DNA of 64,000 nt, taken from assembly GCA_963791085.1 (NCBI GenBank), contig CAWBQG010000003.1, forward strand, positions 119,447 through 183,446, given 5' to 3'. Positions 23,763-39,643 of this stretch are shown here, in pieces. The notes under the pieces were generated by a model that did not search any database, was not told the origin of the DNA, and saw only the letters and a program-made list of their open reading frames with translations. Positions within the stretch are counted from its first letter, which is position 1. Every line of letters begins with the position of its first letter. The translations under genes and the position numbers were made by a program. This DNA is from an uncultured Acidobacteriaceae bacterium. GTDB lineage: Bacteria > Acidobacteriota > Terriglobia > Terriglobales > Acidobacteriaceae.

Positions 23763-23852
23763 ATAGCAGACCTCCCTCGCTGTGAAACTCCCGACAAGTC
23801 GCTTTTCATGAGCGCACCTCAGCGACTTATGGCTCTATCAGTGCCCAATAGG

Positions 23853-24548: not shown

Positions 24549-24580
24549 GCTCCACCTCAGGAGATTTATCTATTAAATGA

Positions 24581-26167
24581 CTAAGCAACGACTAAGTCTG
24601 CTGCCGGATCGTTTATCTTACTTGTTGACACTGGTTCCGCGACTCGTTGTGCGCGCCGTACTGGCCGACTGGGCGCTGTTCCAACTGCCGCAAATGCGGT
24701 TTGTGCCGCTGCGTCCGGCGCTGCCTTCCGCCTTCGGGCTGTGCGCTTCTTTTCCGGCGGCTTGATCCCGGCGGCATCGCGCAGTTCACCGAAGCTCTCT
24801 TCAAGCAATATCTCCAGCTTCCGCAAATCCGGCGCTGCCTGCGCATCTCCGCTGAAACCGAAGTACGCCATTCCGTTGTAACTCAAAATGGCGCAATTGA
24901 CGGCCATCTCGCCTCCGACCGGAACATACGGATAGCAATGCAGCATTTTGTGTCCGAACAGATAAAGCGGCCACTGCGGACCGGGCACATTCGTGCAGAC
25001 CAGATTGAAAGGTGTGATCGGCAACCGGCTCGCCAGTGGCCCCATCAATCCCTGCACCGAGGTCGGAAACATGCCGATCAATCCTCCGGCCAAACTTACT
25101 AACTCGGCGGCATGCACTCGCTTGAGAAATTCGGTTCGCTTGTGTGCCGCAGCAAGCAAGTGTAGCGGCCGGCGGATATCCAGCGGAATGGTAACTGGAA
25201 CCAGCGAGATCCGATTGCCGAGTTCCGACGGGCTGCTTTTCCCCCGCAGGCTGACTGGGACCATGATGCGCAGCAATCTCCCCTTCACGCTATCGCCATG
25301 TAACTCGCAGTAGCGCCGAATCGTCGCCGTGACGATCGCGAGAATGACGTCGTTTACGCTGGTCTTACATTTGTGCCGGATGGCTTTGATCTCCTCGAGC
25401 GGAATCTGAGTGAAACAGAACTTCTGCGGTCCCTGGTAAAGAACGTTGAACCGTAGCCGCTCCGTAAACGCCGTGAGTTCAGGGAACAGGCCGGCAAACT
25501 CGCGAGTGTCCAGGTCGCTGCCGTTGGCCGCCGCGCGCTCCGCCATGCTTAGCAGATCGCCCAGCGCCGAGAGAATTCGTTTGAGAAAGTCCGAATATGT
25601 CTCCACAAACCCCGTTGTAAGTGACGTCAGTGGGTCGCGAGGCGGCGGAACACGGAATTTAAGCTTTTTTCTGGGAAGACGCGGCGCTTCCGGGTTCGCA
25701 TCCAGAAGTACGTTCATGATACCCACGCCGGCGATTCCATCGGCCAGGCAGTGGTGCAACCGGAAGATAAGTGCGCTCCGACCGCCTTTTAATCCCCTCA
25801 CAAGCGTGATATCCCATAACGGGTGTTGTCGATCCATTACCGTGCCGAAAAGTTTTCCGGCCAGCGTTTTCAGTTCCGTGTCGGTGCCGTGTTTGAGTCT
25901 TACTTCACGCACATGGCGGTCGAGTGCAAAATTTGGATCGTACTCCCAGGTGGGGAGACCCAGGCCGAAAGGCGCGGGCACCACACGTTTCAGATAACGC
26001 GGCAGGAGCGGCAGCTTCGACTCGATAAACTGAACGCAGTCTGCAAATGAAACTTCACCTTCGAACACGCAGATGCTCGCCACATTGAGCGGCATGCCTT
26101 CCCGCTCCAGATGCAGGAAGACCGTGTCCCCCCAGGAAAGGCGGTCGCTCTGTTGATCGTTCTGCAT
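24581..26167 (-). CDS. wax ester synthase/diacylglycerol acyltransferase (WS/DGAT) family protein
   Basis: 528 aa with the catalytic HHxxxDG motif (RLHHCLADGIAG) and a downstream NVPGP motif. The Lys/Arg/Ala-rich C-terminal tail of about 65 aa is unusual. Confidence 0.9.
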   Translation of the reverse strand: MQNDQQSDRLSWGDTVFLHLEREGMPLNVASICVFEGEVSFADCVQFIESKLPLLPRYLKRVVPAPFGLGLPTWEYDPNFALDRHVREVRLKHGTDTELKTLAGKLFGTVMDRQHPLWDITLVRGLKGGRSALIFRLHHCLADGIAGVGIMNVLLDANPEAPRLPRKKLKFRVPPPRDPLTSLTTGFVETYSDFLKRILSALGDLLSMAERAAANGSDLDTREFAGLFPELTAFTERLRFNVLYQGPQKFCFTQIPLEEIKAIRHKCKTSVNDVILAIVTATIRRYCELHGDSVKGRLLRIMVPVSLRGKSSPSELGNRISLVPVTIPLDIRRPLHLLAAAHKRTEFLKRVHAAELVSLAGGLIGMFPTSVQGLMGPLASRLPITPFNLVCTNVPGPQWPLYLFGHKMLHCYPYVPVGGEMAVNCAILSYNGMAYFGFSGDAQAAPDLRKLEILLEESFGELRDAAGIKPPEKKRTARRRKAAPDAAAQTAFAAVGTAPSRPVRRAQRVAEPVSTSKINDPAADLVVA

Positions 26168-26209
26168 GGCGTCTCTCCTAATCAGGGCGCCGCGCGGCCA
26201 AAGCGCACT

Positions 26210-26491
26210 TCAGTTCTCGAAAGAAAAGCGCCGCGTCAATTTCATCAGCTTGAGCACTTTATAAACCTCAACGTTCACGGCGCGTAAGACGACCCTGACC
26301 CCTACCGCGTCAGCCCTTCGGATAAACTCTTCCATCGCGCGGAGCGTGCTCGAATCCACCCGGCGCACGGCAGAGAAATCCACAATCAAGTCCCCGGTCG
26401 CGGCGTCGAGCTTTTCTCCGGCCTCTCGCAAAACCGCGGCCACGCGCTTTTCATCGATCTTTAACGACATCGCAATCATCGACATATGCAC
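26210..26491 (-). CDS. STAS domain protein (anti-sigma-antagonist/MlaB-like fold)
   Basis: 93 aa (DFSAVRRVDSSTLRAMEEFIRRADAVGVRVVLRAVNVEVYKVLKLMKL). It starts 8 nt after the adhE stop. Confidence 0.7.
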   Translation of the reverse strand: MHMSMIAMSLKIDEKRVAAVLREAGEKLDAATGDLIVDFSAVRRVDSSTLRAMEEFIRRADAVGVRVVLRAVNVEVYKVLKLMKLTRRFSFEN

Positions 26492-26499
26492 CGCCGCGG

Positions 26500-29166
26500 T
26501 TACACGGTTTGTTGTTCGGGTATGTCAGCAGGTTTGGCAACGCCTCGGCCCTCATACGCTTTCCAAAGCAGTTCGGCCAGTTCGCTCATTAGGGGCATGC
26601 GCGGATTCGAGCGCCACGACGGATCTTCAAAAGTGGCCTTCACGAGGTCGGGAATCGCCCGCTCGAATTCTTCCTTCGAAATGCCCATCTCGGCGATTGA
26701 TCGTGGAAAGTTCAAGTCATCGAGCAATTGTTCCGTTGCCTCGATCAGTTTCTTGACTTTTTCTTCCACCGTATGACCGCCTAGTCCGAGTAAGTCTGCG
26801 ACCGTAGCGTACTTTTTATGCGCCACATAACCCTGCGTATAAGGCGACGGCATGAACTTGGCAGGAACTGCGGCGTTATAGGCAATTACATGCGGCAACA
26901 TGAGCGCATTGGCCCGGCCGTGCGCGACGTTAAAACGCGCCCCAAAAGCATGCGCTAGCGCGTGATTGACTCCCACTGACGCGTTTGAGAATGCCATTGC
27001 CGCGATGCAGGCGGCGTTGTGCATCATCGAGCGGGCCTCTTCATCGCGTGGATGCTCATAGGCGATCGGCAGGTACTTAAATGCCAGCCGAATCGCCTGC
27101 ATGGCGTTGGCATCGGTATAAGGCGATGCATAATTCGACACGCCAGCTTCCAGCGCGTGAGTCAGGCAATCGATGCCGGTGTCGGCCGTCAGGCCTTTCG
27201 GCATCGACATGACAAACTGCGGATCAACAATCGCCACGTCCGGAGTTAGCGAGTAATCGGCAAGTGTCACCTTGCGCCCACTCGACTTATCGGTCAGTAC
27301 CGCAAATGGAGTAACTTCGCTGCCGGTTCCGCTGGTTGTAGCAATCGCAATCATCCGTGCCCGGCTTGCTTTTTCGGTCGGAAACTGAACCACTCGTTTG
27401 CGGAGATCGAGAAAAGGCGCCGCCAACCCTTGCAGGTCAGCCTCGGGCGATTCATACTTAAGCTTCATGATCTTCGCCGCGTCGATAACCGACCCGCCGC
27501 CGAGCGCAATGATCTGGTCCGCTTTGTAGAAGTTGAGTGTCTCCACTCCCTGCGAGATGACCTTGATCTCAGGCTCCGCATCCGGAATGACTAGCACGTG
27601 AACGTGAGTGTCCGCGCCAATGTTTCGCCGGACGATATCTACGTGGCCGATTTGCTCGAGGCCCGGACTGGTGACGATGATGGTCGAGCGGGAGGGAAAC
27701 TGCCGCACGTTTTCCACCGCGTTCATGTTGAAGTAGATCTGATTCGGAATTCGGAACCACATATGGTTTTGTGTCCTGCGGGCGACGCGCTTGATGTTCA
27801 GATAGTGATAAACGTTGACGTTGTCGGTTGTGCTGTTACCGCCTCCGGTCCCGCATCCGAAAGAGAACGTCGGCACGAGATCGTTGTAAACCGCGCCCAG
27901 CGCTCCAATTGAGCCCGGCGAATTCACAATGATTCGCCCTGCGTTGATCACTTCGCTGAACTTGCGGATCACCTCATCGTTGCGCGAGAAAACAACCGCG
28001 GTGTGCCCAAGCCCTCCGGCATGATTTACGTCCACGCACACCTGGAGTGCCTCGCTCACCGACTTCGCGCGATAGACCGCGAGCACCGGGAATAGCTTTT
28101 CGGCCGAAAGCGGATGCTCCCGACCCACGCCTCGAATCGGCGCAATCAGAAGTTTGGTATTTGGCTTCACCGCGAGACCAATGAAGCGCGCGATATCGGT
28201 AGCCTTCTGCCCAACGGCCATAGGCTGCATAAATCCGGTCTGCGGATCAATCACCGTGCGCTCCAGCAGCGCGGTTTCTTTCTCGTTGCAGATGTGCGCG
28301 CCCAGGTCGGCAAATGTTTTCAGGGCGGCATCATAAATCTCGTCGTCGATCACCACCGTCTGCTCGGAAGCGCAAATGGTCCCGTTATCGAATGTTTTCG
28401 AAATAATAATGTCGACCACGGCCGCATTCAGATCCGCGGATTTTTCCAGGTAAACTGGCGTGTTCCCCGGTCCCACACCCAACGCCGGCTTGCCCGAACT
28501 GTAAGCGGCTTTTACCGCGCCCGGCCCGCCCGTGGCGTCGATCATGGCCACGTCTTTGTGCCGCATCATGTAGACGTTGTCGGGGATCGTGGGCGATTCC
28601 AGGCAGCTAAAAACCCCCTCCGGCGCGCCTTGCTTCACTGCCGTCTCGTACATGATTCTCACGGCCTCGGCGCAACAGCGCCACGCTTTCGGGTGCGGGC
28701 TGAAGATAACCGCGTTCCGCGTCTTCATCGCCACGATGCACTTGAACAAGACCGTGGAAGTGGGGTTCGTAATCGGCGTAATTGAAAACAAGACGCCGAT
28801 CGGGTCCGCTATCTCCACTAAATTCCGCTCGGGAAACTCGCGAATCACACCGACTGTGCGCTTGTCCTTGACATAGTTATAGACAAACTCGCTGGCCACC
28901 ATGTTCTTGATGACCTTGTCTTCCATCACGCCAAGCCTGGTTTCCTCAACCGCCAGCCGCGCCAGATGCTGAGCCTGCTCAAGTCCCGCCAGCACCATCG
29001 ATTTGACGATGCGATCCACGTCCTCCTGTGTAAATTGGGTAAAAACAGCGGCGGCGGTTTTTGCCTGACTAACCAGGTTCTCCAGGTAAGCAGTTCGTTC
29101 CGGACTGAGGCTGTCCGCGGCGGATGGACCGTGCGCTTGCTCCTTCACCGCTTCACTCGCGATCAT
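26500..29166 (-). CDS. adhE: bifunctional acetaldehyde-CoA/alcohol dehydrogenase AdhE
   Basis: 888 aa. N-terminal aldehyde dehydrogenase half (TNPTSTVLFK, FDNGTICASEQ) and C-terminal Fe-ADH half (GGGSVIDAAK, GVNHALAHAFG). Confidence 0.95.
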   Translation of the reverse strand: MIASEAVKEQAHGPSAADSLSPERTAYLENLVSQAKTAAAVFTQFTQEDVDRIVKSMVLAGLEQAQHLARLAVEETRLGVMEDKVIKNMVASEFVYNYVKDKRTVGVIREFPERNLVEIADPIGVLFSITPITNPTSTVLFKCIVAMKTRNAVIFSPHPKAWRCCAEAVRIMYETAVKQGAPEGVFSCLESPTIPDNVYMMRHKDVAMIDATGGPGAVKAAYSSGKPALGVGPGNTPVYLEKSADLNAAVVDIIISKTFDNGTICASEQTVVIDDEIYDAALKTFADLGAHICNEKETALLERTVIDPQTGFMQPMAVGQKATDIARFIGLAVKPNTKLLIAPIRGVGREHPLSAEKLFPVLAVYRAKSVSEALQVCVDVNHAGGLGHTAVVFSRNDEVIRKFSEVINAGRIIVNSPGSIGALGAVYNDLVPTFSFGCGTGGGNSTTDNVNVYHYLNIKRVARRTQNHMWFRIPNQIYFNMNAVENVRQFPSRSTIIVTSPGLEQIGHVDIVRRNIGADTHVHVLVIPDAEPEIKVISQGVETLNFYKADQIIALGGGSVIDAAKIMKLKYESPEADLQGLAAPFLDLRKRVVQFPTEKASRARMIAIATTSGTGSEVTPFAVLTDKSSGRKVTLADYSLTPDVAIVDPQFVMSMPKGLTADTGIDCLTHALEAGVSNYASPYTDANAMQAIRLAFKYLPIAYEHPRDEEARSMMHNAACIAAMAFSNASVGVNHALAHAFGARFNVAHGRANALMLPHVIAYNAAVPAKFMPSPYTQGYVAHKKYATVADLLGLGGHTVEEKVKKLIEATEQLLDDLNFPRSIAEMGISKEEFERAIPDLVKATFEDPSWRSNPRMPLMSELAELLWKAYEGRGVAKPADIPEQQTV

Positions 29167-29447
29167 TACTGCCTCCCTTCCGAACTGCGGGGAACCTCGC
29201 CGGCGTGAGCGCGTCTACTTGGAAATCAAATGTCCGAAGTAAAATGCCGGCGTCGAATCTTCGTCTATGACGGCGGCACTAATCTCTTGATCGCCTCAAA
29301 GCGCAAAATTACAAGGGATTAGCGACAGCGTGTGAGGAAAGTTCGGCGATGCAGATTCCGGGGCTCCGGCGGGCACCATACGTCAGCCTCGCTACCAAAG
29401 TAGAGCCCCTTCGGTGGAGTTGGTCTACAACGTGTGTCACACCTGAA

Positions 29448-29463
29448 TGTGACTATTATCACG
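29448..29463. promoter_or_regulatory. CRP/FNR-family-like site TGTGA-N6-TCACG in the adhE upstream region
   Basis: 'tgtgactattatcacg' matches TGTGA-N6-TCACA at 9/10 positions, about 290 nt upstream of the adhE ATG. Confidence 0.25.
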
Positions 29464-29542
29464 GGCTAACCGCAGATAGGCCGTGACCTACTAAGTCGCC
29501 GCTGGCTGAACTAAGGGCCGCTTGGTTTTCGAGGGGCAGGAG

Positions 29543-29557
29543 TGCTGCGGTGCAGCA
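29543..29557. promoter_or_regulatory. PhaR-type palindromic operator TGCTGC-ggt-GCAGCA (adhE leader/promoter region)
   Basis: Perfect 6+3+6 palindrome, identical in its arms to the sites at both phasin-like promoters. It lies 377 nt upstream of the adhE ATG. Confidence 0.5.
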
Positions 29558-29642
29558 TAAGTCATGCACGCACGGCGTTAGTTGCAGACTCAACACGCGC
29601 ATGGTGATCACCACGCGACTTAGCGGACATGCCAGGTTATTA

Positions 29643-29655
29643 GCTGCAATGCAGC
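29643..29655. promoter_or_regulatory. second, shorter palindrome GCTGC-aat-GCAGC upstream of adhE
   Basis: Same 5+3+5 core as the 15-mers, 100 nt further upstream. Confidence 0.35.
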
Positions 29656-29872
29656 GCAAGAATTGTTTTGCGGCGGGCCCATGGAAAGGAATCCGATTTG
29701 GCGTCCAGCTGATTGCGAAACAGGGGTTTCGCCTCATCCGTCGTGGAAGTCATGGAAATTTGTTGCAGAAACCAAGGGGTATTGCGGAAGGGCAGTCTGG
29801 GGCATTCTTTTCCCCTCATCACCGGCGTTCTCGACGAGGTTGCCGAGCAACGGTCGCCCCGCATGGGCAGCT

Positions 29873-30160
29873 TCAGAACATTACGCAGGCTTCGTTGACC
29901 CGATCCAGCACCCGTTGCAGCAGCGCGAGTTTCCGCTCGAGTTCCGCCTTCCGTGCAGCATCCGTCTCCCGGGCGATTTGCTCCTTCATGCTGTTCTTCT
30001 TGCCCGCAAGCAACTCTCCCGTCTGTTCGAGTTCGCCGGCGTCGAGCCGCAGATCATGGGCCATGACCTTTGTCAAAATTTCGTTGTATTGTCGCGGGTC
30101 GCCTTCTAGCAGAACATTCGCCAGCAGTTTCAGTTCGTCCGTTTCCAGGTGGAATTGCAT
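29873..30160 (-). CDS. hypothetical coiled-coil protein
   Basis: The ATG at 30160 is preceded by GAGGGGGAG. The 95-aa product starts MQFHLETDELKLLANVLLEG. Family not recognised. Confidence 0.5.
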   Translation of the reverse strand: MQFHLETDELKLLANVLLEGDPRQYNEILTKVMAHDLRLDAGELEQTGELLAGKKNSMKEQIARETDAARKAELERKLALLQRVLDRVNEACVMF

Positions 30161-30352
30161 GGCTCCCCCTCTCAACTCGAAAAATGCTTCATAGAAATTA
30201 GATCACGGTAACCCGCGAGGTGTCAGTGACGACCATCATCGGAGCACAGTCCGGCCGTACTTCTTCCAGGAATTCTCGATGAGGTGGAATTGGGTTGATG
30301 ACGCCGCAGGCGCGGGCGCGGGAAAGAACGAATTGCAGCGGTTCCTCCCGGT

Positions 30353-30913
30353 CTACTGCCCAAGCAGGCCTTTTTTCAGAGCCGCAGTGGGCGGCTTTGG
30401 CCCAAGCCACACGGAGAAGAGCGCTTGGCCGAAGCTCGGGCCGTCGATCACCAGCCTCTCCTTGCCATTGATGGCGAACGTCGTGCCCATGCCGGGGACG
30501 CAGGTGAAGATCATCTGATCGCCCTCCTTGAGCGGTTCAAGGGCGCCCAGCATCCGGTCGATGTCCGCCTTCATCGTCCTCTCAGCGTCCGGCGCGTTGT
30601 CGCGAAACGATTCGTCGAACGCCTCCGCCATCTGGTTCTTGCTTACGCTGCGCATGAACTGCAGGACGATCCGCTTGGGTTCATCGGCCTTGAGGATTGC
30701 GCCGGGATCCGCGGACTTCTGCGTCAGGTAGAGTCCTGCAACGTAAACCTTAACCATGTATTTCGTGCGCAATCCCATGCCATTGAGCACCAGCGACGTT
30801 CTCCCCACCTGTACCGTATCCGGCATGGACACGCCCGCCAGTTCGGCAGCGTATAGATTGCAGATCGACGCCAGCGCGAACGCGACCGCCAACGAAATAA
30901 CCGTGCTTCGCAT
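30353..30913 (-). CDS. secreted chalcone isomerase-like family protein
   Basis: 186 aa with a signal peptide and a pattern typical of bacterial CHI-like proteins (LVLNGMGLRTKYMVKVYVAGLYL ... FSVWLG). Confidence 0.8.
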   Translation of the reverse strand: MRSTVISLAVAFALASICNLYAAELAGVSMPDTVQVGRTSLVLNGMGLRTKYMVKVYVAGLYLTQKSADPGAILKADEPKRIVLQFMRSVSKNQMAEAFDESFRDNAPDAERTMKADIDRMLGALEPLKEGDQMIFTCVPGMGTTFAINGKERLVIDGPSFGQALFSVWLGPKPPTAALKKGLLGQ

Positions 30914-31081
30914 GTGTATCCCTCAGTAAACGGGCCTGCGAGACGAGATCGTACCACAGGCAAACCTGCCGTCCGAGCCACCTCTTAGTCCGAGGCTGGC
31001 TCCATGAATACCTGAACGAACTCGACTCTTGTTGATAAAATGAGCGGCGAGCGGCGAGTCGGAAACCCAAAAGGGAGGCGG

Positions 31082-32344
31082 ATGGAGAACGCGATCGGTC
31101 TCGTGATGACCGGCGGAGGCGCCAGGGGTGCCTATCAAGCCGGAGTTCTGAAGCGCATCGGTGAGCTGAAAGCGATCGAGGCCCACGGCAATCCTTTTCC
31201 TTTGATCGGAGGCGCGTCCGCCGGCGCAGTGAATGGCAGTGCGCTCGCCGCCGGTTGCGACGATTTCTCCTCCGCAACCCGTCTTCTCGCCGAAATGTGG
31301 GCGGGGCTCCAACCCTCCGATGTCTTCCGCTGCGATTTCGTAACGCAGGCGCACAATTCCCTCACCTGGATTCTGGATCTTTCATTTGGCGGGATTACCG
31401 GCGGAGGCCATGCCCGATCCTTATTAGATGCCGCTCCACTGCGGCACTTCCTGGGGCGGCATCTCGATTGTGACCGCATTCAAGCCAACATCAAGTGCGG
31501 CAACCTCTATGCTCTGGCCATTTCGGCGACCAACTTCAACTCCGGAAAGAGCTATCTTTTCATTCAGGGCGCCAAAGGGCACCCCATGTGGCAGCGTAGC
31601 CGGAGGGTGACGGTAGCGGCCAAAATTACGGTTGACCACATTTGCGCGTCCGCCGCCATTCCACTGATCTTCGAGCCGGTGCAACTCAAGATCCCAAGGG
31701 GATCAGCTTTCTTCGGTGACGGTTGCGCTCGCCTTCAACAACCTCTCAGCCCGGTCATCCGCCTGGGAGCGAAGAAGGTTTTCGCCATCGGCGTCCGCTG
31801 TGACAGCCAGCAACCCCTGGAAGTAAGCGCAGTTGAGAAAAGTCCCTCGCTCGCGCAGGTGATGGGAGTTCTCTTCAACGTGATCTTCCTCGACCATCTC
31901 GCCACCGATCTGGAGCACTTGGAGCGGCTGAATCATCTGCTCGAACATGGCCAGATCGTGAAGCACGACGTGGAAGAGTGCGAAACAATCCGCCCCTTGC
32001 GGACGTTTGTCATCACCCCATCCGTCATCTTGTCGGATGTGGCAGAGCGCCATCAAAAAGACATGCCCTCTCTGGTTCGGTACTTTGTCAACAGCTTGGG
32101 ACGGGATTCGGATTCCTGTGCGGACTTGATGAGTTACTTGCTCTTCACTTCAAAGTACACCCGCGAGTTGATTGACGTCGGCTATCGCGACGCCGACGAG
32201 CGAATCGATGAAATCGAAGACTTCCTATATTCCTCGGACGGTGGGGAAAGCCGGAAGATCGCCGCCAATGCGGCGAAAGGTGGGATCAAGCCACCTGCGG
32301 ACCTGAACGCCGATGGACCGGGTAACGTAAACCGGTTCTTGTGA
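31082..32344 (+). CDS. patatin-like phospholipase family protein
   Basis: The ATG at 31082 follows GGAGGCGG. Motifs: oxyanion GGGARGAYQAGV, nucleophile GASAGA, and FFGDGC (catalytic Asp region). Confidence 0.85.
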   Translation: MENAIGLVMTGGGARGAYQAGVLKRIGELKAIEAHGNPFPLIGGASAGAVNGSALAAGCDDFSSATRLLAEMWAGLQPSDVFRCDFVTQAHNSLTWILDLSFGGITGGGHARSLLDAAPLRHFLGRHLDCDRIQANIKCGNLYALAISATNFNSGKSYLFIQGAKGHPMWQRSRRVTVAAKITVDHICASAAIPLIFEPVQLKIPRGSAFFGDGCARLQQPLSPVIRLGAKKVFAIGVRCDSQQPLEVSAVEKSPSLAQVMGVLFNVIFLDHLATDLEHLERLNHLLEHGQIVKHDVEECETIRPLRTFVITPSVILSDVAERHQKDMPSLVRYFVNSLGRDSDSCADLMSYLLFTSKYTRELIDVGYRDADERIDEIEDFLYSSDGGESRKIAANAAKGGIKPPADLNADGPGNVNRFL

Positions 32345-32586
32345 GCGAGCAGCCTTCCGGCATGCGGAAATCGCGCCGCCGGATAGTTGAAGCTGGAAAT
32401 AAAATCGCGTCCTCGGACGAATGACTTGATTCGTTCGAAAAAGTGCCTCGAATCGAACGACCATTCGCCCGAAGACGCCTCGCCGGAGTCAACGATCTTT
32501 CTCCAGACGATAATGGGCTGGCGTTTTCGGCAACACGCATCGCCACAGACCGAAAAAGCTCGCCCTGCCTCGTTATTGCCGTCGCA

Positions 32587-33513
32587 TCAGGCGGTCGCCG
32601 CGACCGGAGGCTTTCTGGTGGCCCGCACTGGACGCTTGGCGCTCCGCTCCGTCTTGCCCGTTCGCGCGTGTCCATTCACAGGCCTTACGACGGCATCCAT
32701 CACTGCCCGCTGCGCGTCCACGTAGCTCTTCACAGTCTCCCGCGCCAACTCGCCCAGTGGGACGAACGGGAACGGCTGCAGAAGGTCCAGGGTCTTGCCT
32801 GCAGTTTTCACATAGGCGTTCATTTGCTGCCCTGCAACGTCGGCCAGCTTCTTTTGGGCCTCGATGAACGAGTCTGTCGCCTGTCGCGCAATCTCCGCCA
32901 GTTCGGTCTTCTTCATCTTCTTCGCACCGTTGGCGCTCTTCCCGCGGGTTGCGTTGGAGGTCTCTTCGGCGATCACGTCCAGAAAACGCTTCTGCGCCTT
33001 GACGAAGGTCTCCATGCTTTCGCGGGCCAGATCCACCACGTGCTCCGGCTGGTATGGCTTGCGGGCTTTGGCGGCCTCCACCCAGACATGATTCTGCTTG
33101 CCGGCGATCTTCAGGAACCCCTCTTGCATCTCAATGAAGGTGTCCACGCTGCGCCGCAGCAGATCAATGGCGGCATGGCGCCGCGGGCACTCGCCGATAC
33201 GTTCCTTGACCCCGGTCATCAGAATTTCGTTCTGCTCCTTGCCGAGATCGAGAAGCACCTTCTGTCCTTCGAGAAAGTTTTCCATGCCCTCGCCCGCCAT
33301 TTCGTTGAGGATGGTCGTGGGCGAACGATGGGGATCCGATAGTTGCTGCCGCAGGACGTCCATCACGCTGGCATTCTGCCGCATCGCCAGATCCAGCAGG
33401 ATCCGCTGCGTGCCGAAGAAAGCCTGTGCTCCCTGCTGCGCCCAACCGGAAAGAAGCGACAACACCGACGCTTCCTTTTGCGGAGTGGGTTCGTGCTTTG
33501 TTGCCGCTGCCAT
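32587..33513 (-). CDS. phasin-like repeat protein (paralog 1)
   Basis: 308 aa with six copies of an amphipathic motif, x-F-x3-Q-x3-L-D (e.g. ENFLEGQKVLLDLGKEQ, ETFVKAQKRFLDVIAEE, DSFIEAQKKLADVAGQQ), and a basic C-terminal tail. It is divergent from phaR and preceded by a strong promoter plus a palindromic operator. Confidence 0.7.
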   Translation of the reverse strand: MAAATKHEPTPQKEASVLSLLSGWAQQGAQAFFGTQRILLDLAMRQNASVMDVLRQQLSDPHRSPTTILNEMAGEGMENFLEGQKVLLDLGKEQNEILMTGVKERIGECPRRHAAIDLLRRSVDTFIEMQEGFLKIAGKQNHVWVEAAKARKPYQPEHVVDLARESMETFVKAQKRFLDVIAEETSNATRGKSANGAKKMKKTELAEIARQATDSFIEAQKKLADVAGQQMNAYVKTAGKTLDLLQPFPFVPLGELARETVKSYVDAQRAVMDAVVRPVNGHARTGKTERSAKRPVRATRKPPVAATA

Positions 33514-33528
33514 ATGAGTTCCTCCGAT

Positions 33529-33543
33529 TGCTGCGTTGCAGCA
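33529..33543. promoter_or_regulatory. PhaR-type palindromic operator TGCTGC-gtt-GCAGCA at the phasin-like gene 1 / phaR divergent region
   Basis: Perfect palindrome, 8 nt downstream of the -10 of the phasin-like promoter and just upstream of its RBS. Confidence 0.65.
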
Positions 33544-33551
33544 TCAGCTAA

Positions 33552-33580
33552 ACTATACGAGGTCAAGGGACTTGTGTCAA
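33552..33580 (-). promoter_or_regulatory. sigma70-like promoter of phasin-like gene 1 (TTGACA-N17-TATAGT)
   Basis: On the minus strand: 'ttgaca' (33575-33580), a 17-nt spacer, 'tatagt' (33552-33557). Confidence 0.55.
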
Positions 33581-33623
33581 GATATTCCGGGTCGCTTGTG
33601 CACAGCAACATAGGCGGGGAACC

Positions 33624-34157
33624 ATGAAGCCTTCCGCAGTCGTCATCAAGAAATACGGGAATCGCCGCTTGTACGACACCACTGGCAGCCGCTACGTCAA
33701 CCTCGACGACCTGGCCGCGCTCGTTCGAGCAGGTCAGGAGGTCCGCGTCGTCGATGCGAAAACCGGCCAGGACCTGACCCGCGTCACGCTGACGCAAATC
33801 ATTACCGAGGACGCTAAGGATAAGCCGACCGGCCTGCCGCTCGAACTGTTGCGTCAGTTGATCATCGCCTCCGATGAAGTGCGGCAGGAATTCCTCATGT
33901 GGTATCTGAAATCCGCGTTTGACACCTACGAGAAGGTGCATGATACGGTGCAGCACCGCTTGAGTGAAGTTCAGTCCGCCATCCTCTCTCCGGTAGACAT
34001 GATGAAGCGCTTCCTCGGTACAGCGGTGCCATCGTCTCCGCAAGCCGGCGTGGAGCCCGAAGTGGATGCCCTGCGCAAGCGGGTCGCGGAACTCGAGGCG
34101 CGACTGGAAAAGCCCGCGCGCGGCAAAGGCAAACGTAAATCCCGCAAGAAGCGTTGA
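33624..34157 (+). CDS. phaR: polyhydroxyalkanoate synthesis repressor PhaR
   Basis: 177 aa with a PhaR N-terminal DNA-binding signature (IKKYGNRRLYDT..S.YV.L.DL) and a basic tail (GKGKRKSRKKR). Confidence 0.9.
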   Translation: MKPSAVVIKKYGNRRLYDTTGSRYVNLDDLAALVRAGQEVRVVDAKTGQDLTRVTLTQIITEDAKDKPTGLPLELLRQLIIASDEVRQEFLMWYLKSAFDTYEKVHDTVQHRLSEVQSAILSPVDMMKRFLGTAVPSSPQAGVEPEVDALRKRVAELEARLEKPARGKGKRKSRKKR

Positions 34158-34315
34158 GCGCGCATCTGTCACGAGACCGCTCAACCTGACACGAGTGCCG
34201 GGGATGTCAACTTCGATATCTGTTTGGCCGGCAGAAGAGAGCGGTATAATCCCGCAGCACGCCAATCGCCCTCTCCGCGCGGCAACGCGAGGACAGAGGC
34301 CAGCGCAGGACGAAC

Positions 34316-35128
34316 TTGCAGCGCAAACAGAAAAGGACAACAAAACGTCATTCAACGATCGGACAGCGCAGGCGTCCTCGTCGGCAACTCCGCCCGGAAG
34401 CGAACACCTCCCTCTGGACCGAGGCGCTGCTCGGAGCTGAAATCCTCATCCTTCACGCCGCTCCTGTGTTCTACGGCCTGGGCGTGCCGCACGGCGATGG
34501 CTCCGCGGTTGTCATCATTCCCGGGTTTCTCGGCACCGATCTCTACCTGACGGAGCTGCATGCATGGCTGCGCCGCATTGGATACCAGCCGTATTTTTCC
34601 GGGATCGGCATGAATGCAGAATGTCCGAACCTGCTCATCCAGCGCCGTCTGAATCAGACCATCGACAGGGCGTTGGCCGAGACGGGGCGCAAGATTCATC
34701 TGATTGGCCATAGCCTGGGAGGAGTCATCGCCCGCTCGGTGGCGGGCGAGCGGCCGAACGATGTTGCTTCAGTAATTACCCTGGCTGCGCCCATCCGCGG
34801 CATGGTTGCGAATCGCGCTGTTCGCCGCGCCGCCGAAGCTGTTCGCCTCCGCATTCTTGAGGAGCACGGCCGAGGCGTGCTGCCCGATTGTTACACCGGC
34901 CAATGTACCTGCAATTTCCTGAATTCGCTCCGTCGCAAAGTCCCCGCCGCGATGGGCGAGACCGCCATTTTCACACGCAACGACGGCGTTGTGGACTGGC
35001 GCAACTGTCTGACGAGAGACCCTGAAAAAGACGTGGAAGTCCCCGGCACTCACATCGGAATGGCATTCAATCCAGCGGTATATGCGGTGGTCGCCGAGCG
35101 GCTGGCCCGGGCGCATTCGGCCGGGTAG
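34316..35128 (+). CDS. alpha/beta hydrolase (lipase/esterase-like)
   Basis: Nucleophile elbow GHSLGG, with an upstream PGFLGTD loop. The first available start is TTG 34316, giving a very basic N-terminus. The real start is uncertain. Confidence 0.75.
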   Translation: MQRKQKRTTKRHSTIGQRRRPRRQLRPEANTSLWTEALLGAEILILHAAPVFYGLGVPHGDGSAVVIIPGFLGTDLYLTELHAWLRRIGYQPYFSGIGMNAECPNLLIQRRLNQTIDRALAETGRKIHLIGHSLGGVIARSVAGERPNDVASVITLAAPIRGMVANRAVRRAAEAVRLRILEEHGRGVLPDCYTGQCTCNFLNSLRRKVPAAMGETAIFTRNDGVVDWRNCLTRDPEKDVEVPGTHIGMAFNPAVYAVVAERLARAHSAG

Positions 35129-35147
35129 CGTGATCGCTGCGGACTGC

Positions 35148-36089
35148 TCAGCCAACCATCTCCAGCACCGCGCCGGCGGTGGTTTCTAAACTTTCTGCCG
35201 GTGCGCCCGCAATCTCAATAACAAGCGACGCCGATGCCAGGCTGTTGTTCAGGACCTCGAACGCGCTCGTGCAATCAGTCTTTAAATAAGGAAGGCGATG
35301 CAGGCTCGGACCGCGTCCGTCAATCGAAGCTTCCAGGCGGAGCCCATTTCGTCCGCCGCAGCGAAAATTCCACTGCATGCCGGTGCGGATGTCGCCGTGT
35401 TCCCGCAAATCGCGGAGGACATGCTTCTCGCCACCGTGCCAGAGCACCGCTTTGCGGAATACCAGTCCAAATGGCATCTCGTAGACCAGGGCCTCAAACG
35501 TGGTTGCGGGCCGGCCGGCGCGAGGAAAATATGCGTGGGTCCAGGTCCAGAAGTTGCGATGCCGGTATCCGCAGTTGTGTCCCTGCAAGCCGAACCCGAG
35601 CGCGTCGCCCGCAAAGCTCCAGCCGTCCAGCGTGATCTCGCCGGAAAAAATCGCATCGGAGTGCGGCGTCCGCGAAAAGCCAATCCAGCCTTTGTTGCTC
35701 AACGTCACACGAAACGTGGAACGGTAACGCAGGTTCCAGCCGATCGTATGCCCGTCGACCACCAGCGCTCCCCGGCACGAGTCTTCTTCGATGCCGTTTT
35801 CGCCAACGTGAAACTGAAAGGGAGCCTGTCCTCTTCGGCTGAGGTCTAGCGACTGCAGCGGAAATCCCTGAATGAAGCTCTGCGGCTGCCCGCCCGCCGG
35901 AAACCATGTCGCCCACACCTGCACGGGCATTCCGCGCGGATTTCCGGCGCAGCCGCCGCGCCCGGGATTCATCAGCAAGTAACGAAACCACCAGGCGCCG
36001 CTGCCGTCGGCCAGTCCCATACGAAGAAACCAGACTTCATAGCGGCGCCGAACCGACAATGACGAAAATACTTCGTTTAGAGTGGCCAA
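35148..36089 (-). CDS. hypothetical protein, tentatively tocopherol-cyclase-like family
   Basis: 313 aa (TTG start). From memory, it resembles tocopherol cyclases: an N-terminal YEVWFLR...WWFRYLLMNP (cf. FFEGWY.R...F.YS.ENP), a central GHNCGYRHRNFWTWTHAYF (cf. EKNWG..FP..W.W.Q.N.F), and a C-terminal TAGAVLEMVG. The family call needs an HMM search. Confidence 0.5.
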   Translation of the reverse strand: MATLNEVFSSLSVRRRYEVWFLRMGLADGSGAWWFRYLLMNPGRGGCAGNPRGMPVQVWATWFPAGGQPQSFIQGFPLQSLDLSRRGQAPFQFHVGENGIEEDSCRGALVVDGHTIGWNLRYRSTFRVTLSNKGWIGFSRTPHSDAIFSGEITLDGWSFAGDALGFGLQGHNCGYRHRNFWTWTHAYFPRAGRPATTFEALVYEMPFGLVFRKAVLWHGGEKHVLRDLREHGDIRTGMQWNFRCGGRNGLRLEASIDGRGPSLHRLPYLKTDCTSAFEVLNNSLASASLVIEIAGAPAESLETTAGAVLEMVG

Positions 36090-36221
36090 GGATTTTCACG
36101 CTCCACGTAATGCAAGAAACGACATAGGAACTGTCTCACGGACGGATCGCACACGCCGTGATAGCTGTTACTGCGCTTCCGGGCCCCGGAGACTATAGTG
36201 TGAAGATCGAGACTCACCTCT

Positions 36222-37889
36222 ATGCTGGATGCGTCCGCCATCGCCGCGGGCTTTGGCCAGCTCGCCCCCGGCCAGTTGCGCGCCGCCCTCGAGAGCTTCT
36301 TGCCCCAGGGCGTCCCGGCCGCCGATAAAGTCAGCGTCATCGAAACCGGCCTGCGCAGCCCTGCCGGCCAGGCCATGCGCGACGTAATGGCGCGATGGAT
36401 CGTCGATGAAATCGTTCCGGTGGATACGCTCGTTCCCGAAGCTTATGTCAAGTGGCGTCCGCCTGTAAGGGACGCCATGATGTTTGTGGTGGCGCGACTT
36501 TCCCCGGCGCGCCTCGCCCCAAAACTTCTGGAGCAGATTGATCTTCCCGCCAACACGCTGGCCGAAGTGCGGCTGCTGCGCTTGATCGCGAAGGTGCCGG
36601 GCCTGCAAAAGCTGGGCCAGGTTATCGCGCGCAATCAGCATCTTCATCCGGCTCTGCGCAAGGCGCTTGCCCGGCTCGAAAACGGGATTCGCGACGTCCG
36701 GCCGGAACAGATTCATGCCATCATTCAGCGCGATCTGGGGAAGAGGATCGAAACGTACGCCATCGAGATCGCCCCTGCCATCCTCTCGGAGGCCAGCGTC
36801 AGCGCGGTTGTGCGCTTCAGCTGGCGAAATCCCGAGACCGGACGCCGCCAGCGTGGCGTCTTCAAAGTCCTGAAGCCTCACATCCCCGAGTATTTCGCCG
36901 AAGACATGGACTATCTGCAAGGGCTGGCCCAATATTTCGGAGATCGGCACCACCGCTATGGATTTCCTGCGCACCTCATTCCTGATACCTTCCGCAAAGT
37001 CCGGCGCTTGCTCCGGCACGAAGTCAATCTTGTCCGCGAACAGAAGACGCTGGTCGAAGCGGAAACTCTCTATCGGTCGATGCCCGGTGTTCGTGTGCCG
37101 CAGGTGATCGCCCCTTTGTGCGCGCCCACCATCACAGCGCTCACTGAGGAACGCGGGATCAAGGTAACGAGCGCGGCCGCCCGCTTGCCTGTCGCGCGCC
37201 GCCGAAAAGTGGCCGAGCAGCTCATCGAAGCTCTCGTCGCCGTGCCTTTGTTTGCGGCCACGCCCGATGCGATCTTCCACGGCGATCCTCATGCCGGCAA
37301 CCTGCTCTACAACAACCGCACCGGCGATTTGGTCATCCTCGACTGGGCCCTGCGGGAGCGACTGGGCCGCGAGCAGCGCCGGCATCTGGCGCTCCTGTTT
37401 CTGATGGTCAGCTTGCGCGATCCTCTCGGCGCCAGCGCCGCGATCGGCGCGCTCAGTCAGCAGCCCACAAGAATGCATTCGACTCGGGGAAAAATGCTGC
37501 GCCAGTCGGTAACGGAATTTCTGGGCGAGATGCCGCCCTCCCATTTGCCCAGTGCCGCCGACTCCATGCGCCTTCTCGAACGGGTCGCGATGAAAGGCGT
37601 CAGGTTTCCCGCCTCGCTCGTCATGCTGTCAAAGGTGATGTTCACGCTCGAAGGCATACTGGCCGACATCGTTGGGTCGGACACGGGTATGGGCTTCGCC
37701 ATCGCGCGTCGCGTCGCCCGCCGCTGGCTTGCCAATCGCTCCGCGTTCCGCTCGCCGCTCCGAACACGGGACTGGCTGACGCTGCAGTGCAGCGCGTTGC
37801 TCTACACCAGCCGCCTGTGGATCGATTGGGAGCAAGCGATGCTGAGGCGTTTTCTGACACACCGTTCCAAAGCGTTGCCAGCTGCCTGA
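36222..37889 (+). CDS. ABC1/UbiB (AarF) atypical kinase family protein
   Basis: 555 aa with ABC1 motifs: VFKVLKP, FHGDPHAGNLLY, ILDWA. Confidence 0.9.
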   Translation: MLDASAIAAGFGQLAPGQLRAALESFLPQGVPAADKVSVIETGLRSPAGQAMRDVMARWIVDEIVPVDTLVPEAYVKWRPPVRDAMMFVVARLSPARLAPKLLEQIDLPANTLAEVRLLRLIAKVPGLQKLGQVIARNQHLHPALRKALARLENGIRDVRPEQIHAIIQRDLGKRIETYAIEIAPAILSEASVSAVVRFSWRNPETGRRQRGVFKVLKPHIPEYFAEDMDYLQGLAQYFGDRHHRYGFPAHLIPDTFRKVRRLLRHEVNLVREQKTLVEAETLYRSMPGVRVPQVIAPLCAPTITALTEERGIKVTSAAARLPVARRRKVAEQLIEALVAVPLFAATPDAIFHGDPHAGNLLYNNRTGDLVILDWALRERLGREQRRHLALLFLMVSLRDPLGASAAIGALSQQPTRMHSTRGKMLRQSVTEFLGEMPPSHLPSAADSMRLLERVAMKGVRFPASLVMLSKVMFTLEGILADIVGSDTGMGFAIARRVARRWLANRSAFRSPLRTRDWLTLQCSALLYTSRLWIDWEQAMLRRFLTHRSKALPAA

Positions 37890-37934
37890 ACGCTGGCGCA
37901 CCCACGAGAGGATCTGGTTGCGCTAACTAAGTCC

Positions 37935-37972
37935 GTCATCCCGACCGGAGCGAAGCGGAGTGGAGGGACCTC
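37935..37972 (+). repeat. family C-related unit 'gtcatcccgaccggagcgaagcggagtggagggacctc'
   Basis: It shares the gtcat-...-agcgaagc- pattern with 9111..9140. Confidence 0.5.
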
Positions 37973-38039
37973 GTGTCTTCAACGACTCTCATTCTTGATG
38001 AGGCCCCTTCAATATGCCGATTATCTCCGGGGTACTACA

Positions 38040-38792
38040 TTACGCCGGCACAACCTTGGGCCGGCGAACTGCGCGCCGCTGGCTGTGTTTGGCCTTGGCC
38101 ACGACCTTCCTGCCCGGCTTGACAAGCTCCCCGATCCGGGACGCCTCCTTCTCGACAAAGTTCTTCACGCTTTCGCTGGTGAGGTTCGCCATCGGCAGCA
38201 AGCGGGAAGGCGACATCATTTCGGCCGTTCGAGTGGCCACGTCCAGGTTGACGTTCATCTGCTGGCCCACGACGTCGAGCAGCCTTTTCTGCGCCTCGAC
38301 AAAGGCGTTTCCTGCTTCGCGAGCCAGTTGCGTCAGTTCGGTTTTTTTCGCAGTCTTGCCGTCGTGCTCGTGCTTGCCCCGCGTCGCTTTCGCGGTTTCC
38401 TGCGCCACCACGTCGAGGAACTTTTTTTGCGCGCGCGTAAAGGTCTCGACCCCCTCGCGGGCAAACTCCACCAACTGGGCCGAGCGCGATCCCTTGGCTC
38501 CCTTTTCCGGCTCCAGCATCCGGAGCGCCTGTTTGCTGGTGGTGGTCAGCAGCTCTTGCTGCATCCCGATGAGTGTATCGAGGCCCCGCCGTACAAGATC
38601 GGTCGCTGCAACCGCCGGCAGAAAGCCGCCGACTCGTTCTTTTACACCGTTGAAGATGATGTCGTTCTCTTGTTGTGCCAGGTTAAGAAGAGTGCGCTGC
38701 GTTTCCACAAGGCTCGATGTTCCCTCGACGGCCAGCTCAGTCAACAACGACAGAGGCGAGTGCCCATTGTGGAGATTGGTATGGGTCGGCAT
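38040..38792 (-). CDS. phasin-like repeat protein (paralog 2)
   Basis: ATG at 38792 (MPTHTNLH). It is collinear with 32587..33513 (ETFTRAQKKFLDVVAQETAKATRGK...KKTEL...AFVEAQKRLLDVVGQQMN) and has a basic tail. It has the same promoter/operator architecture. Confidence 0.7.
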   Translation of the reverse strand: MPTHTNLHNGHSPLSLLTELAVEGTSSLVETQRTLLNLAQQENDIIFNGVKERVGGFLPAVAATDLVRRGLDTLIGMQQELLTTTSKQALRMLEPEKGAKGSRSAQLVEFAREGVETFTRAQKKFLDVVAQETAKATRGKHEHDGKTAKKTELTQLAREAGNAFVEAQKRLLDVVGQQMNVNLDVATRTAEMMSPSRLLPMANLTSESVKNFVEKEASRIGELVKPGRKVVAKAKHSQRRAVRRPKVVPA

Positions 38793-38806
38793 AAGTGCCC
38801 TCCAAA

Positions 38807-38821
38807 TGCTGCAATGCAGCA
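38807..38821. promoter_or_regulatory. PhaR-type palindromic operator TGCTGC-aat-GCAGCA at phasin-like gene 2
   Basis: Perfect palindrome, again exactly 8 nt downstream of the -10 and just upstream of the RBS. Confidence 0.65.
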
Positions 38822-38829
38822 TTGACACT

Positions 38830-38858
38830 AATATAGTATTCGCGCCGCTGCCCGTCAA
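38830..38858 (-). promoter_or_regulatory. sigma70-like promoter of phasin-like gene 2 (TTGACG-N17-TATATT)
   Basis: On the minus strand: 'ttgacg' (38853-38858), a 17-nt spacer, 'tatatt' (38830-38835). Confidence 0.55.
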
Positions 38859-39037
38859 GAGTTGTCTTCAGCCCATTGCGTTGCATCAATATGCAGCCTC
38901 GTGTGTCCTGAAACGGGAGGTGATTCGTCACATTTCCTTCGTGACCCAGCGCATATTCCTGCCGGTTCCGCCGCGCTACTCTGATTCCACTCCCAGCGAC
39001 CACTGACGGTCCGCTCCCCTCCAGAAAGAGATTTGCC

Positions 39038-39643
39038 ATGCGTGTCTTGCGGCGAGTGTTCTTGGCCGCTCTATTCCTGATCGTGTTCTGCCCCTGGAGC
39101 CTCGCGGCCTCCGGTGAATCCGATCAGGCCGTCGCGGAACGCGTCTTGGGTCCGCAATGGAAGCACCTTTCGTGCCGGGCGGGGATGGTATTTGCCGGCA
39201 CGGTGCTCGCCGACCGGGTACAAACCGCGCGAACCGACCGCAACGTGCCATCCATCGCGATGCGGTTCCGCGTGGACCGCGCGATTGCCGGCGTCGAGCC
39301 CGGACAGGTTCTGACCATCCAGGAATGGACCGGCGCGTGGTCGATTCAACCGCCCATGCGCCGAGGCGAGCGCTTCCTCCTCTTTCTATATCCGCTCAGC
39401 CGCCTCGGTCTGACCAGCCTGGTCGGGGGATCGCAGGGGCAGATTCCGCTGGATCCAACTGGCAGATACATCCTCGGCCACCGCCTGTGGGCTTCAGCCC
39501 GCATGCAAAATGCAGCGCAGCCGACTGCGTCGTTGGCTCGCGGGTCGGCCAGTGCTGCCTGCGCAACTCACACTCCGGCGGACCGCGCTCCCGTCACGCT
39601 GGACCAACTGGAGCGGGCGATCCGCTCGGCGCGAGGCGAGTGA
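39038..39643 (+). CDS. secreted hypothetical protein
   Basis: 201 aa with a signal peptide (MRVLRRVFLAALFLIVFCPWSLAASG). Its stop is 3 nt before the next gene. Confidence 0.6.
   Translation: MRVLRRVFLAALFLIVFCPWSLAASGESDQAVAERVLGPQWKHLSCRAGMVFAGTVLADRVQTARTDRNVPSIAMRFRVDRAIAGVEPGQVLTIQEWTGAWSIQPPMRRGERFLLFLYPLSRLGLTSLVGGSQGQIPLDPTGRYILGHRLWASARMQNAAQPTASLARGSASAACATHTPADRAPVTLDQLERAIRSARGE

Follow-up and report, generated by a model that had tools for sequence, protein, structure and literature searches.

The palindrome TGCTGC-N3-GCAGCA (TGCTGCNNNGCAGCA; as a 15-mer pattern, TGCTGCANTGCAGCA) stands at the promoters of two paralogous genes, here called Phas1 and Phas2, in a 64-kb stretch of a contig from an uncultured Acidobacteriaceae bacterium (assembly GCA_963791085.1, contig CAWBQG010000003.1; the whole stretch that was analysed is referred to below as the window). 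Both genes encode presumed inclusion-coat proteins, and we consider the palindrome, with a probability of about 0.85, to be the high-affinity operator of the PhaR-family repressor that is encoded beside Phas1. We favour this reading because the sites fit the sequence footprinted for PhaR in another bacterium, TGCRNYGCASMA, and contain the motif CTGC-N3-GCAG, and because a regulator with the PF07879 domain is encoded 80 bp away from the Phas1 box. The positions of all boxes, promoters and genes are collected in Table 1.

Exact-match scanning of the window found three copies of the palindrome, all of them intergenic and all at the places given in the first-pass annotation of this DNA. In dinucleotide-preserving shuffles (n=100) the mean was 0.02 copies and none of the 100 shuffles reached three, which is of the same order as the earlier chance estimate of below 0.01. 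The shorter core GCTGC-N3-GCAGC has six matches in the window, against 0.13 expected, and these comprise the three perfect boxes, the two cores at 29643 and 37781 that had been listed before, and one at 33148-33160, inside the Phas1 coding region, that had been overlooked. The looser core TGCRNYGCA, in which TGC and GCA triplets are separated by a 3-nt gap, occurs 20 times in the 64 kb, with 11 of the 20 falling within 29.5-39.5 kb, and its triplets are present in all three perfect sites as well as in the two secondary boxes described below.

At both coat-protein genes the box is set into the same promoter anatomy. Along the minus strand, Phas1 presents TTGACA, 17 nt, TATAGT, 8 nt, the box, the ribosome-binding site GGAGG and the ATG at 33513, and Phas2 presents TTGACG, 17 nt, TATATT, 8 nt, the box, GGAGG and the ATG at 38792. 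This anatomy had been described in the first-pass annotation, and a consensus promoter scan agrees with it, ranking the two promoters as the top two sigma-70-like matches in 29100-39100 (11/12 for Phas1 and 10/12 for Phas2). With the transcription start set 7 nt past the -10 hexamer, the box spans approximately +3 to +17; each box is thus predicted to begin about 2 nt past the start, which is a repressor position.

For a phylogenetic footprint, a scan of species-representative genomes with PhaR yielded 80 loci, each from a separate GTDB species of Terriglobales, with PhaR proteins 75-89% identical to that of the window. Phas1 and phaR are divergently arranged in 80/80 loci, and in 80/80 the exact palindrome lies at the orthologous Phas1 start, about 95 nt upstream of the phaR ATG; the 46 loci with Phas2 all have a further exact copy at the promoter of that gene. 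In the promoters stacked on the box, no change is seen at any of the 12 arm positions, the centre of the box is R-N-Y, and the family consensus is aTGCTGCA-N-TGCAGCAat. The -35 and -10 hexamers of Phas1 are well conserved (major-base frequency 0.86 and 0.83), 67/81 species having TTGACA and 54/81 having TATAGT in register, while conservation is lower in the 17-nt spacer (0.57 at Phas1, 0.44 at Phas2) and in the stretch past the box (about 0.5). An invariant box beside a drifting spacer points to a base-specific protein-binding site. Footprinting of the orthologous promoters had been suggested as a check in the first-pass annotation, and its outcome, together with the match to footprinted sites, strengthens the proposal made there, in which each of the two promoters carries an operator of the PhaR type where a repressor would bind.

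One experimental reference is PhaR of Bradyrhizobium diazoefficiens USDA110, whose DNase I footprints define TGCRNYGCASMA (PMC6201568). All three perfect window sites fit this 12-mer exactly (TGC-GTT/AAT/GGT-GCA-GCA), and many acidobacterial boxes have as their core the 12-mer TGCAGTGCAGCA, which is predicted as a site at the PhaR-repressed genes phaZ3 and nifR (PMC6201568). The window sites also contain CTGC-N3-GCAG, which had been named in the earlier annotation as the PhaR site of an alphaproteobacterium; the organism is Rhodobacter sphaeroides FJ1, according to the sections of PMC12542648 and PMC3206438 that cite Chou & Yang (2010). In Cupriavidus necator the PhaR site is YTKNTGCRNYGCANMAR, with degenerate palindromes and a one-nucleotide centre (PMC12849132). 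The PhbF motif of Herbaspirillum seropedicae, TG[N]TGC[N]3GCAA (PMC3206438), is resembled by the secondary box at phaR, and the AniA/PhaR motif of Sinorhizobium meliloti is YGCRNYGCR (PMC12542648), with sites such as TTGCTGCATTGCGAT and CCGCAATGCAGCAAT having half-sites in common with the window boxes.

The regulator encoded next to Phas1 matches PF07879 with an E value of 1.4e-27 (96 bits, cutoff 25) over residues 7-65, covering 59/61 profile positions, and consists of an N-terminal DNA-binding domain (PHB_acc_N), a lineage-specific C-terminal coiled coil and a basic tail. Against TIGR01848 it scores 97.1 bits, under the equivalog cutoff of 109.45, with 104/107 profile positions aligned, and the PHB_acc domain (PF05233) was not matched in this protein even at E<=10. 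Its homologs run into the thousands; the best 120 listed are 79-99% identical, all carry PF07879 alone, and the named ones belong to Terriglobia/Acidobacteriia, the nearest named relatives among those listed being Terriglobia/Terriglobales, many of them labelled Candidatus Sulfotelmatobacter. Searches of PDB sequences with PhaR and with a Phas1 profile returned nothing meaningful (best E 0.4 and 0.05).

The presumed targets, Phas1 and Phas2, are 41% identical and are composed of amphipathic helix repeats of about 46 residues with the signature F-x3-Q-[KR]-x-[LF]-L-D-[LV], six in Phas1 and four to five in Phas2. Their helical hydrophobic moment stands out from shuffled controls (z = 5.0 for Phas1 and 4.4 for Phas2), and an AlphaFold2 model of Phas1 from a 37-sequence alignment is all-helical at low confidence (predicted local distance difference test score, pLDDT, 39; predicted template modelling score, pTM, 0.27). 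Neither protein matched a phasin family (PF05597, PF09361 and related families; NCBIfam), with Pfam searched to E<=10, and Phas1 reached a sub-threshold 20.3 bits against PhaE (PF09712; cutoff 25.7). Phas1 has 2470 homologs, and the names shown among the best 120 are all 'hypothetical protein' or equally generic. The earlier label 'phasin-like' is a guess at function and does not place the proteins in a family. We presume that Phas1 and Phas2 behave like surface-active coat proteins that stand outside the known phasin families, and the operator argues for their control by PhaR.

Additional boxes became apparent that were not described in the first-pass annotation. The 110-bp intergenic region between the divergent phaR and Phas1 genes holds, besides the primary box, a weaker box (ttgTGCacaGCAaca) that overlaps the phaR leader, with its centre 21 nt before the phaR ATG, and forms the conserved block TGTGCa..GCA.CAT. 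Across the family, TGC-N3-GCA is found at +66 to +68 bp from the primary core in 80/81 Phas1 loci, against a background of 0.0185 per window of positions. Upstream of the Phas2 -35 there is a corresponding secondary box (catTGCgttGCAtca), for which the strict TGC-N3-GCA at +65 to +68 is seen in 13/47 loci and degenerate versions in others. The box on the phaR side suggests cooperative two-site repression combined with autoregulation.

We infer that this PhaR binds the boxes, represses the genes and is titrated by an inclusion, in a circuit that would run as follows. A PhaR oligomer would sit on the primary box about 2 nt past the predicted start at Phas1 and Phas2, and it would also occupy the weaker box 66-68 bp upstream, the two boxes together blocking RNA polymerase; with the upstream box of Phas1 placed over the phaR leader, the same complex would autoregulate phaR. 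By analogy with proteobacterial PhaR, hydrophobic storage inclusions would bind PhaR, which would then leave the DNA, allowing the amphipathic coat proteins to be made, and once the inclusion surface is covered PhaR would return to the DNA.

Parts of this circuit are familiar from other bacteria. The PhaR-PhaP system of C. necator (Ralstonia eutropha) H16 likewise has a PHB_acc_N-type repressor and a TGCRNYGCA centre with a single-nucleotide middle, one PhaR site at the start of the phasin gene phaP1 (a predicted start in our case) and another upstream of the -35, and predicted extra sites inside phasin open reading frames (ORFs) (PMC12849132, PMC3206438). Unlike in C. necator, the acidobacterial operator (TGCTGCA-N-TGCAGCA) is a perfect palindrome with longer arms, the second box is at a fixed 66-68 bp, PhaR is without PHB_acc, the targets fall in no phasin family and no polyhydroxyalkanoate (PHA) synthase was found nearby. 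In B. diazoefficiens the regulon also takes in a hydrolase, a polyhydroxybutyrate (PHB) depolymerase (PMC6201568), but this organism is a PHB-accumulating alphaproteobacterium and its sites are asymmetric 12-mers flanking or overlapping the -35, whereas the acidobacterial ones are symmetric 15-17-mers at the predicted transcription start. In R. sphaeroides and S. meliloti, PhaR is a repressor of phasin and depolymerase genes that the storage polymer sequesters, and autoregulation via a weaker site at phaR has been reported (PMC12542648). S. meliloti differs in that the arms of its motif are AT-rich, the motif usually flanks the -35 and the regulon extends to about 50 promoters, against the single locus examined here.

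The third perfect box, upstream of adhE, is a separate case. With perfect matches expected only 0.02 times by chance, this candidate is very probably a PhaR site, and whether it controls the adhE-STAS-WS/DGAT operon stands at about even odds. The first-pass annotation had included the adhE-STAS-WS/DGAT array in the PhaR regulon, and this assignment is not well borne out: a near-perfect box (11/12) is retained upstream of adhE in 3/54 adhE loci (L010, L030 and L055), and in all three a divergent patatin gene starts about 155-170 nt from the box, on the side away from adhE, which makes the target ambiguous. The box might with equal probability have no role at adhE, being either a leftover of a patatin promoter, displaced by insertion of the chalcone-isomerase-like (CHI-like) gene and the 95-aa ORF, or a distal or decoy site. 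Those two genes separate the box from patatin in the window and have no counterpart in the 80 related loci; the box is without the -35/-10/8-nt register of the coat-protein promoters; and adhE has a conserved palindromic element of its own, GTGA-N6-TCAC (29449-29462 in the window; 29/54 related loci, about 240-300 nt upstream). A role at adhE is favoured by the window copy being perfect (12/12, against 11/12 in the relatives), by the low chance of a perfect site (0.02 per 64 kb), by the second, degenerate core (aGCTGCAATGCAGCg) 99 bp off, and by the fact that no plus-strand gene lies within 1.4 kb, leaving adhE as the sole nearby candidate target. No counterpart of the degenerate box was found in the related loci, and the conserved patatin-promoter block of the three relatives (GAAGTCCTAGACGGC) was looked for in the window and is absent near the locus. 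We regard adhE-STAS-WS/DGAT as a tentative candidate member of the regulon.

The GTGA-N6-TCAC element recurs on the Phas2 side: in 36/46 loci (background 0.13 per kb) a copy stands upstream of the promoter, at +92 nt from the box. In the window this copy, near 38920, reads GTGA-N4-TCAC, its spacer being shorter. The element resembles a binding site of the Rex or CRP type, and its regulator would be common to adhE and the Phas2 region. In addition, a block of about 100 nt upstream of adhE (29358-29462) is kept at 72-81% identity in seven related loci (L010, L014, L037, L040, L055, L079 and L082); complementary GTAGAC...GTCTAC segments lie within the block, which may represent either a structured leader of adhE or a complex promoter.

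A further candidate target is the alpha/beta-hydrolase gene. In related loci (L008-L082, approximately 10570-10690) the TATAAT of its promoter is directly followed by TNNTGCAGTGCAGCA, with <=3 mismatches in 35 loci. In the window and in its closest relatives, L004 and L005, the left half of the box is lost and the right half-site kept. The hydrolase is probably a regulon member in much of the family and probably not in the window, which implies that regulon membership changes within the family. The predicted regulon is labile at its edges, with the hydrolase box in many relatives and not in the window, and the adhE/patatin box in the window and three relatives only. In the hydrolase leader (34260-34316) an inverted repeat, gcc..ccgcg...gacgcg..ggc, is conserved, and so is the start region AGGACGAAC-TTG that follows it; this suggests a structured leader and a TTG start codon.

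Two of the shorter cores lie within coding sequence. The site inside Phas1, with one mismatch to the full palindrome in the window, has <=1 mismatch in the majority of related loci, and the codon entropy at codons 118-122 is among the lowest of the Leu, Arg and Ser columns of the gene; low codon entropy is also found at highly conserved residues elsewhere in Phas1, and a PhaR site here is suggestive only. The core at 37781, inside the ABC1 kinase gene, was dismissed as an operator. The peptide encoded there, TLQCSAL, is invariant, and its Leu, Cys and Ser codons vary freely (CTG, CTT, CTA, CTC, TTG and TTA for Leu across 48 loci); the core is best described as a coding by-product.

Several considerations weigh against the palindrome being the PhaR operator of a small regulon. 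The sequence scanned comprised the 64-kb window and the 20-kb neighbourhoods of the relatives, so that the regulon can be called small only tentatively, and the operator register rests on predicted, unmapped transcription starts. PhaR itself is divergent, and because it falls below the TIGR01848 cutoff and is without the PHB_acc domain, its ligand and behaviour may differ. Further, at its predicted place of +3 to +17 the box would be part of the transcript and could fold as a hairpin of 6-7 bp (-7.1 and -9.3 kcal/mol) that leaves the ribosome-binding site free. PhaR binding is, moreover, predicted here from sequence, and the second conserved palindrome, GTGA-N6-TCAC, shows that further regulators act in the locus, so the box could belong to another transcription factor encoded elsewhere, with the proximity of phaR a coincidence. 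We consider this highly improbable, as the box agrees with footprinted PhaR sites at every base of the recognition triplets and of the GCA extension, lies in the phaR intergenic region in every one of the 80 species, and has a secondary partner that overlaps the phaR leader. It is just as improbable that the element acts mainly as RNA, as a 5'-terminal stem-loop that tunes stability or translation of the Phas1 and Phas2 mRNAs, since its folding is unexceptional (z = -1.1 and -1.4; 30 and 21 of 200 shuffles fold as well), the 12 arm bases are invariant in 126 promoters with zero compensatory change, the signature of base-specific protein recognition, and the motif recurs off the leader, in the secondary boxes at about -58, in the hydrolase -10 region of relatives and 377 nt upstream of adhE.

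Table 1. Boxes, promoters and genes of the locus, in window coordinates.
Feature	Position	Strand	Remarks
Long-chain acyl-CoA synthetase	21990-23762	-	Pfam/NCBIfam
Outer-membrane beta-barrel protein	23853-24548	-	Pfam/NCBIfam
WS/DGAT	24581-26167	-	Pfam/NCBIfam
STAS	26210-26491	-	Pfam/NCBIfam
AdhE	26500-29166	-	1147 bits versus equivalog model
Third perfect box	29543..29557		Exact match; 377 nt upstream of adhE ATG, in 700-bp intergenic region; target uncertain
Degenerate box	29642..29656		aGCTGCAATGCAGCg; core 99 bp from third perfect box
95-aa coiled-coil ORF	29873-30160	-	
CHI-like protein	30353-30913	-	Pfam/NCBIfam
Patatin	31040-32344	+	Pfam/NCBIfam
Phas1, 308 aa	32587-33513	-	Presumed inclusion-coat protein
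Possible intragenic Phas1 site	33147..33161		Codons 118-122, LLRRS; one mismatch
Phas1 primary PhaR box (putative)	33529..33543		TGCTGCGTTGCAGCA; about +3 to +17 of predicted minus-strand transcript; exact match, fits TGCRNYGCASMA
Phas1 promoter (predicted)	33552..33580	-	-35 TTGACA 33575-33580, 17-nt spacer, -10 TATAGT 33552-33557
Secondary, weaker box at phaR (putative)	33596..33610		ttgTGCacaGCAaca; core 67 bp from primary core; about -58 from predicted Phas1 start
phaR, 177 aa	33624-34157	+	PF07879
Alpha/beta-hydrolase promoter (predicted)	34245..34259	+	TATAAT and residual right half-site GCAGCA; PhaR box decayed in window
Lipase-like alpha/beta hydrolase	34316-35128	+	Pfam/NCBIfam
Unknown protein, 313 aa	35148-36089	-	
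ABC1/UbiB-type kinase	36222-37889	+	Pfam/NCBIfam
Phas2, 250 aa	38040-38792	-	Phas1 paralog
Phas2 primary PhaR box (putative)	38807..38821		TGCTGCAATGCAGCA; exact match
Phas2 promoter (predicted)	38830..38858	-	-35 TTGACG 38853-38858, 17-nt spacer, -10 TATATT 38830-38835
Phas2 secondary box (putative)	38874..38888		catTGCgttGCAtca; upstream of -35; core 67 bp from primary core

The neighbourhood of the module is largely shared by the relatives. Among the 80 loci the alpha/beta hydrolase is found in 75, the 313-aa gene in 69 and the ABC1 kinase in 49, with Phas2 after ABC1 in 46. The genes adhE, STAS and WS/DGAT lie within 10 kb in 47-52 of the 80 loci, and their order recurs in most of the loci that carry them (about 50/80). 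In the window the intergenic gaps from adhE through STAS, WS/DGAT and the outer-membrane protein gene to the acyl-CoA synthetase gene (21990-29166) are 8, 42, 32 and 90 nt, and adhE-STAS-WS/DGAT is likely an operon that runs on into the last two genes. With AdhE encoded directly upstream of a wax-ester synthase, it may, speculatively, supply alcohol for ester synthesis and possibly serve as an anaerobic electron sink. Between adhE and patatin, the CHI-like gene and the 95-aa ORF (29873-30913) look like a lineage-specific insertion. In two metagenome-assembled genomes, two contigs each carry a phaR-Phas1 module (L018 and L030, both CAWEAB01; L011 and L082, both DATFNP01), which may be due to duplication or to strain heterogeneity in the bin. 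Elsewhere in the window, plus-strand ORFs at 9814-10782 and 10826-11602 match the Pfam family NAD-GH (PF10712); longer ORFs lie antisense to them (region 9691-11614), and the NAD-GH matches may stem from antisense translation of a real minus-strand gene.

What kind of storage body the module serves bears on its significance. We tentatively suggest, at somewhat less than even odds, that in this Terriglobales lineage (Candidatus Sulfotelmatobacter and relatives) the PhaR/coat-protein module senses and coats droplets of neutral lipid (wax ester or triacylglycerol) and not PHB. In favour of this are the score of PhaR below the TIGR01848 cutoff, its lack of PF05233, the new family of amphipathic 46-residue-repeat proteins that it would control together with, in many species, a lipase-like hydrolase, and the conserved neighbours WS/DGAT, AdhE, lipase-like hydrolase, patatin, ABC1 kinase and acyl-CoA synthetase, joined in relatives by acyl-CoA dehydrogenase, GMC oxidoreductase, isocitrate lyase and malate synthase. 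Pfam showed no PhaC domain in the annotated window ORFs, and the families that recur in a set of 77 neighbour ORFs, drawn from 16 loci, do not include PhaC; tblastn with C. necator PhaC against the window and the 80 loci within 10 kb gave a best E of 0.44, which we take as a lead only. Against the neutral-lipid reading, proteobacterial PhaR regulons also extend past PHB genes. A functional analogy, and only that, is offered by Rhodococcus jostii RHA1, where the lipid-droplet-associated regulator MLDSR reportedly controls the adjoining gene of the abundant droplet-surface protein MLDS; the host is an actinobacterium, and the protein families and operator are unrelated to PhaR. As an observation on the wider surroundings, glyoxylate shunt genes (isocitrate lyase, malate synthase), large acyl-CoA dehydrogenases and multihaem cytochromes lie within 10 kb of phaR in relatives (e.g. 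L008:459-1922), a set of neighbours that would fit an economy of fatty acids and acetate at this locus.

Circuits of this kind, with PhaR boxes at the promoters of coat proteins, are known. New here are the Acidobacteriota host, the longer symmetric operator and the fixed two-box layout, as well as a PhaR without PHB_acc, a target family without annotation, and a neutral-lipid (WS/DGAT) context with no PhaC found nearby. To our knowledge, next to nothing has been established about how the Acidobacteriota control transcription or store carbon, and a search of the available papers on PhaR, phasins or PHA in Acidobacteria or Sulfotelmatobacter found nothing relevant. Soil surveys take phaR as a proxy of PHA storage, and with phaR placed in a WS/DGAT neutral-lipid locus here, that proxy may mislead. 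The gene has been reported in 16% of Acidobacteria isolates (preprint 10.1101/2024.12.02.626346), and neutral-lipid storage in the phylum has been called unexplored (PMC10351704). The locus provides a concrete entry point to this storage, a precise candidate operator for an Acidobacteriota regulator (TGCTGCA-N-TGCAGCA with a weaker box 66-68 bp away) and a testable function for a family of about 2,470 proteins that has no informative name among those shown. Should the neutral-lipid reading be true, phaR would not be a reliable marker of PHA storage in soil Acidobacteriota, and the Phas1/Phas2 family would be the first candidate lipid-droplet coat proteins of the phylum.

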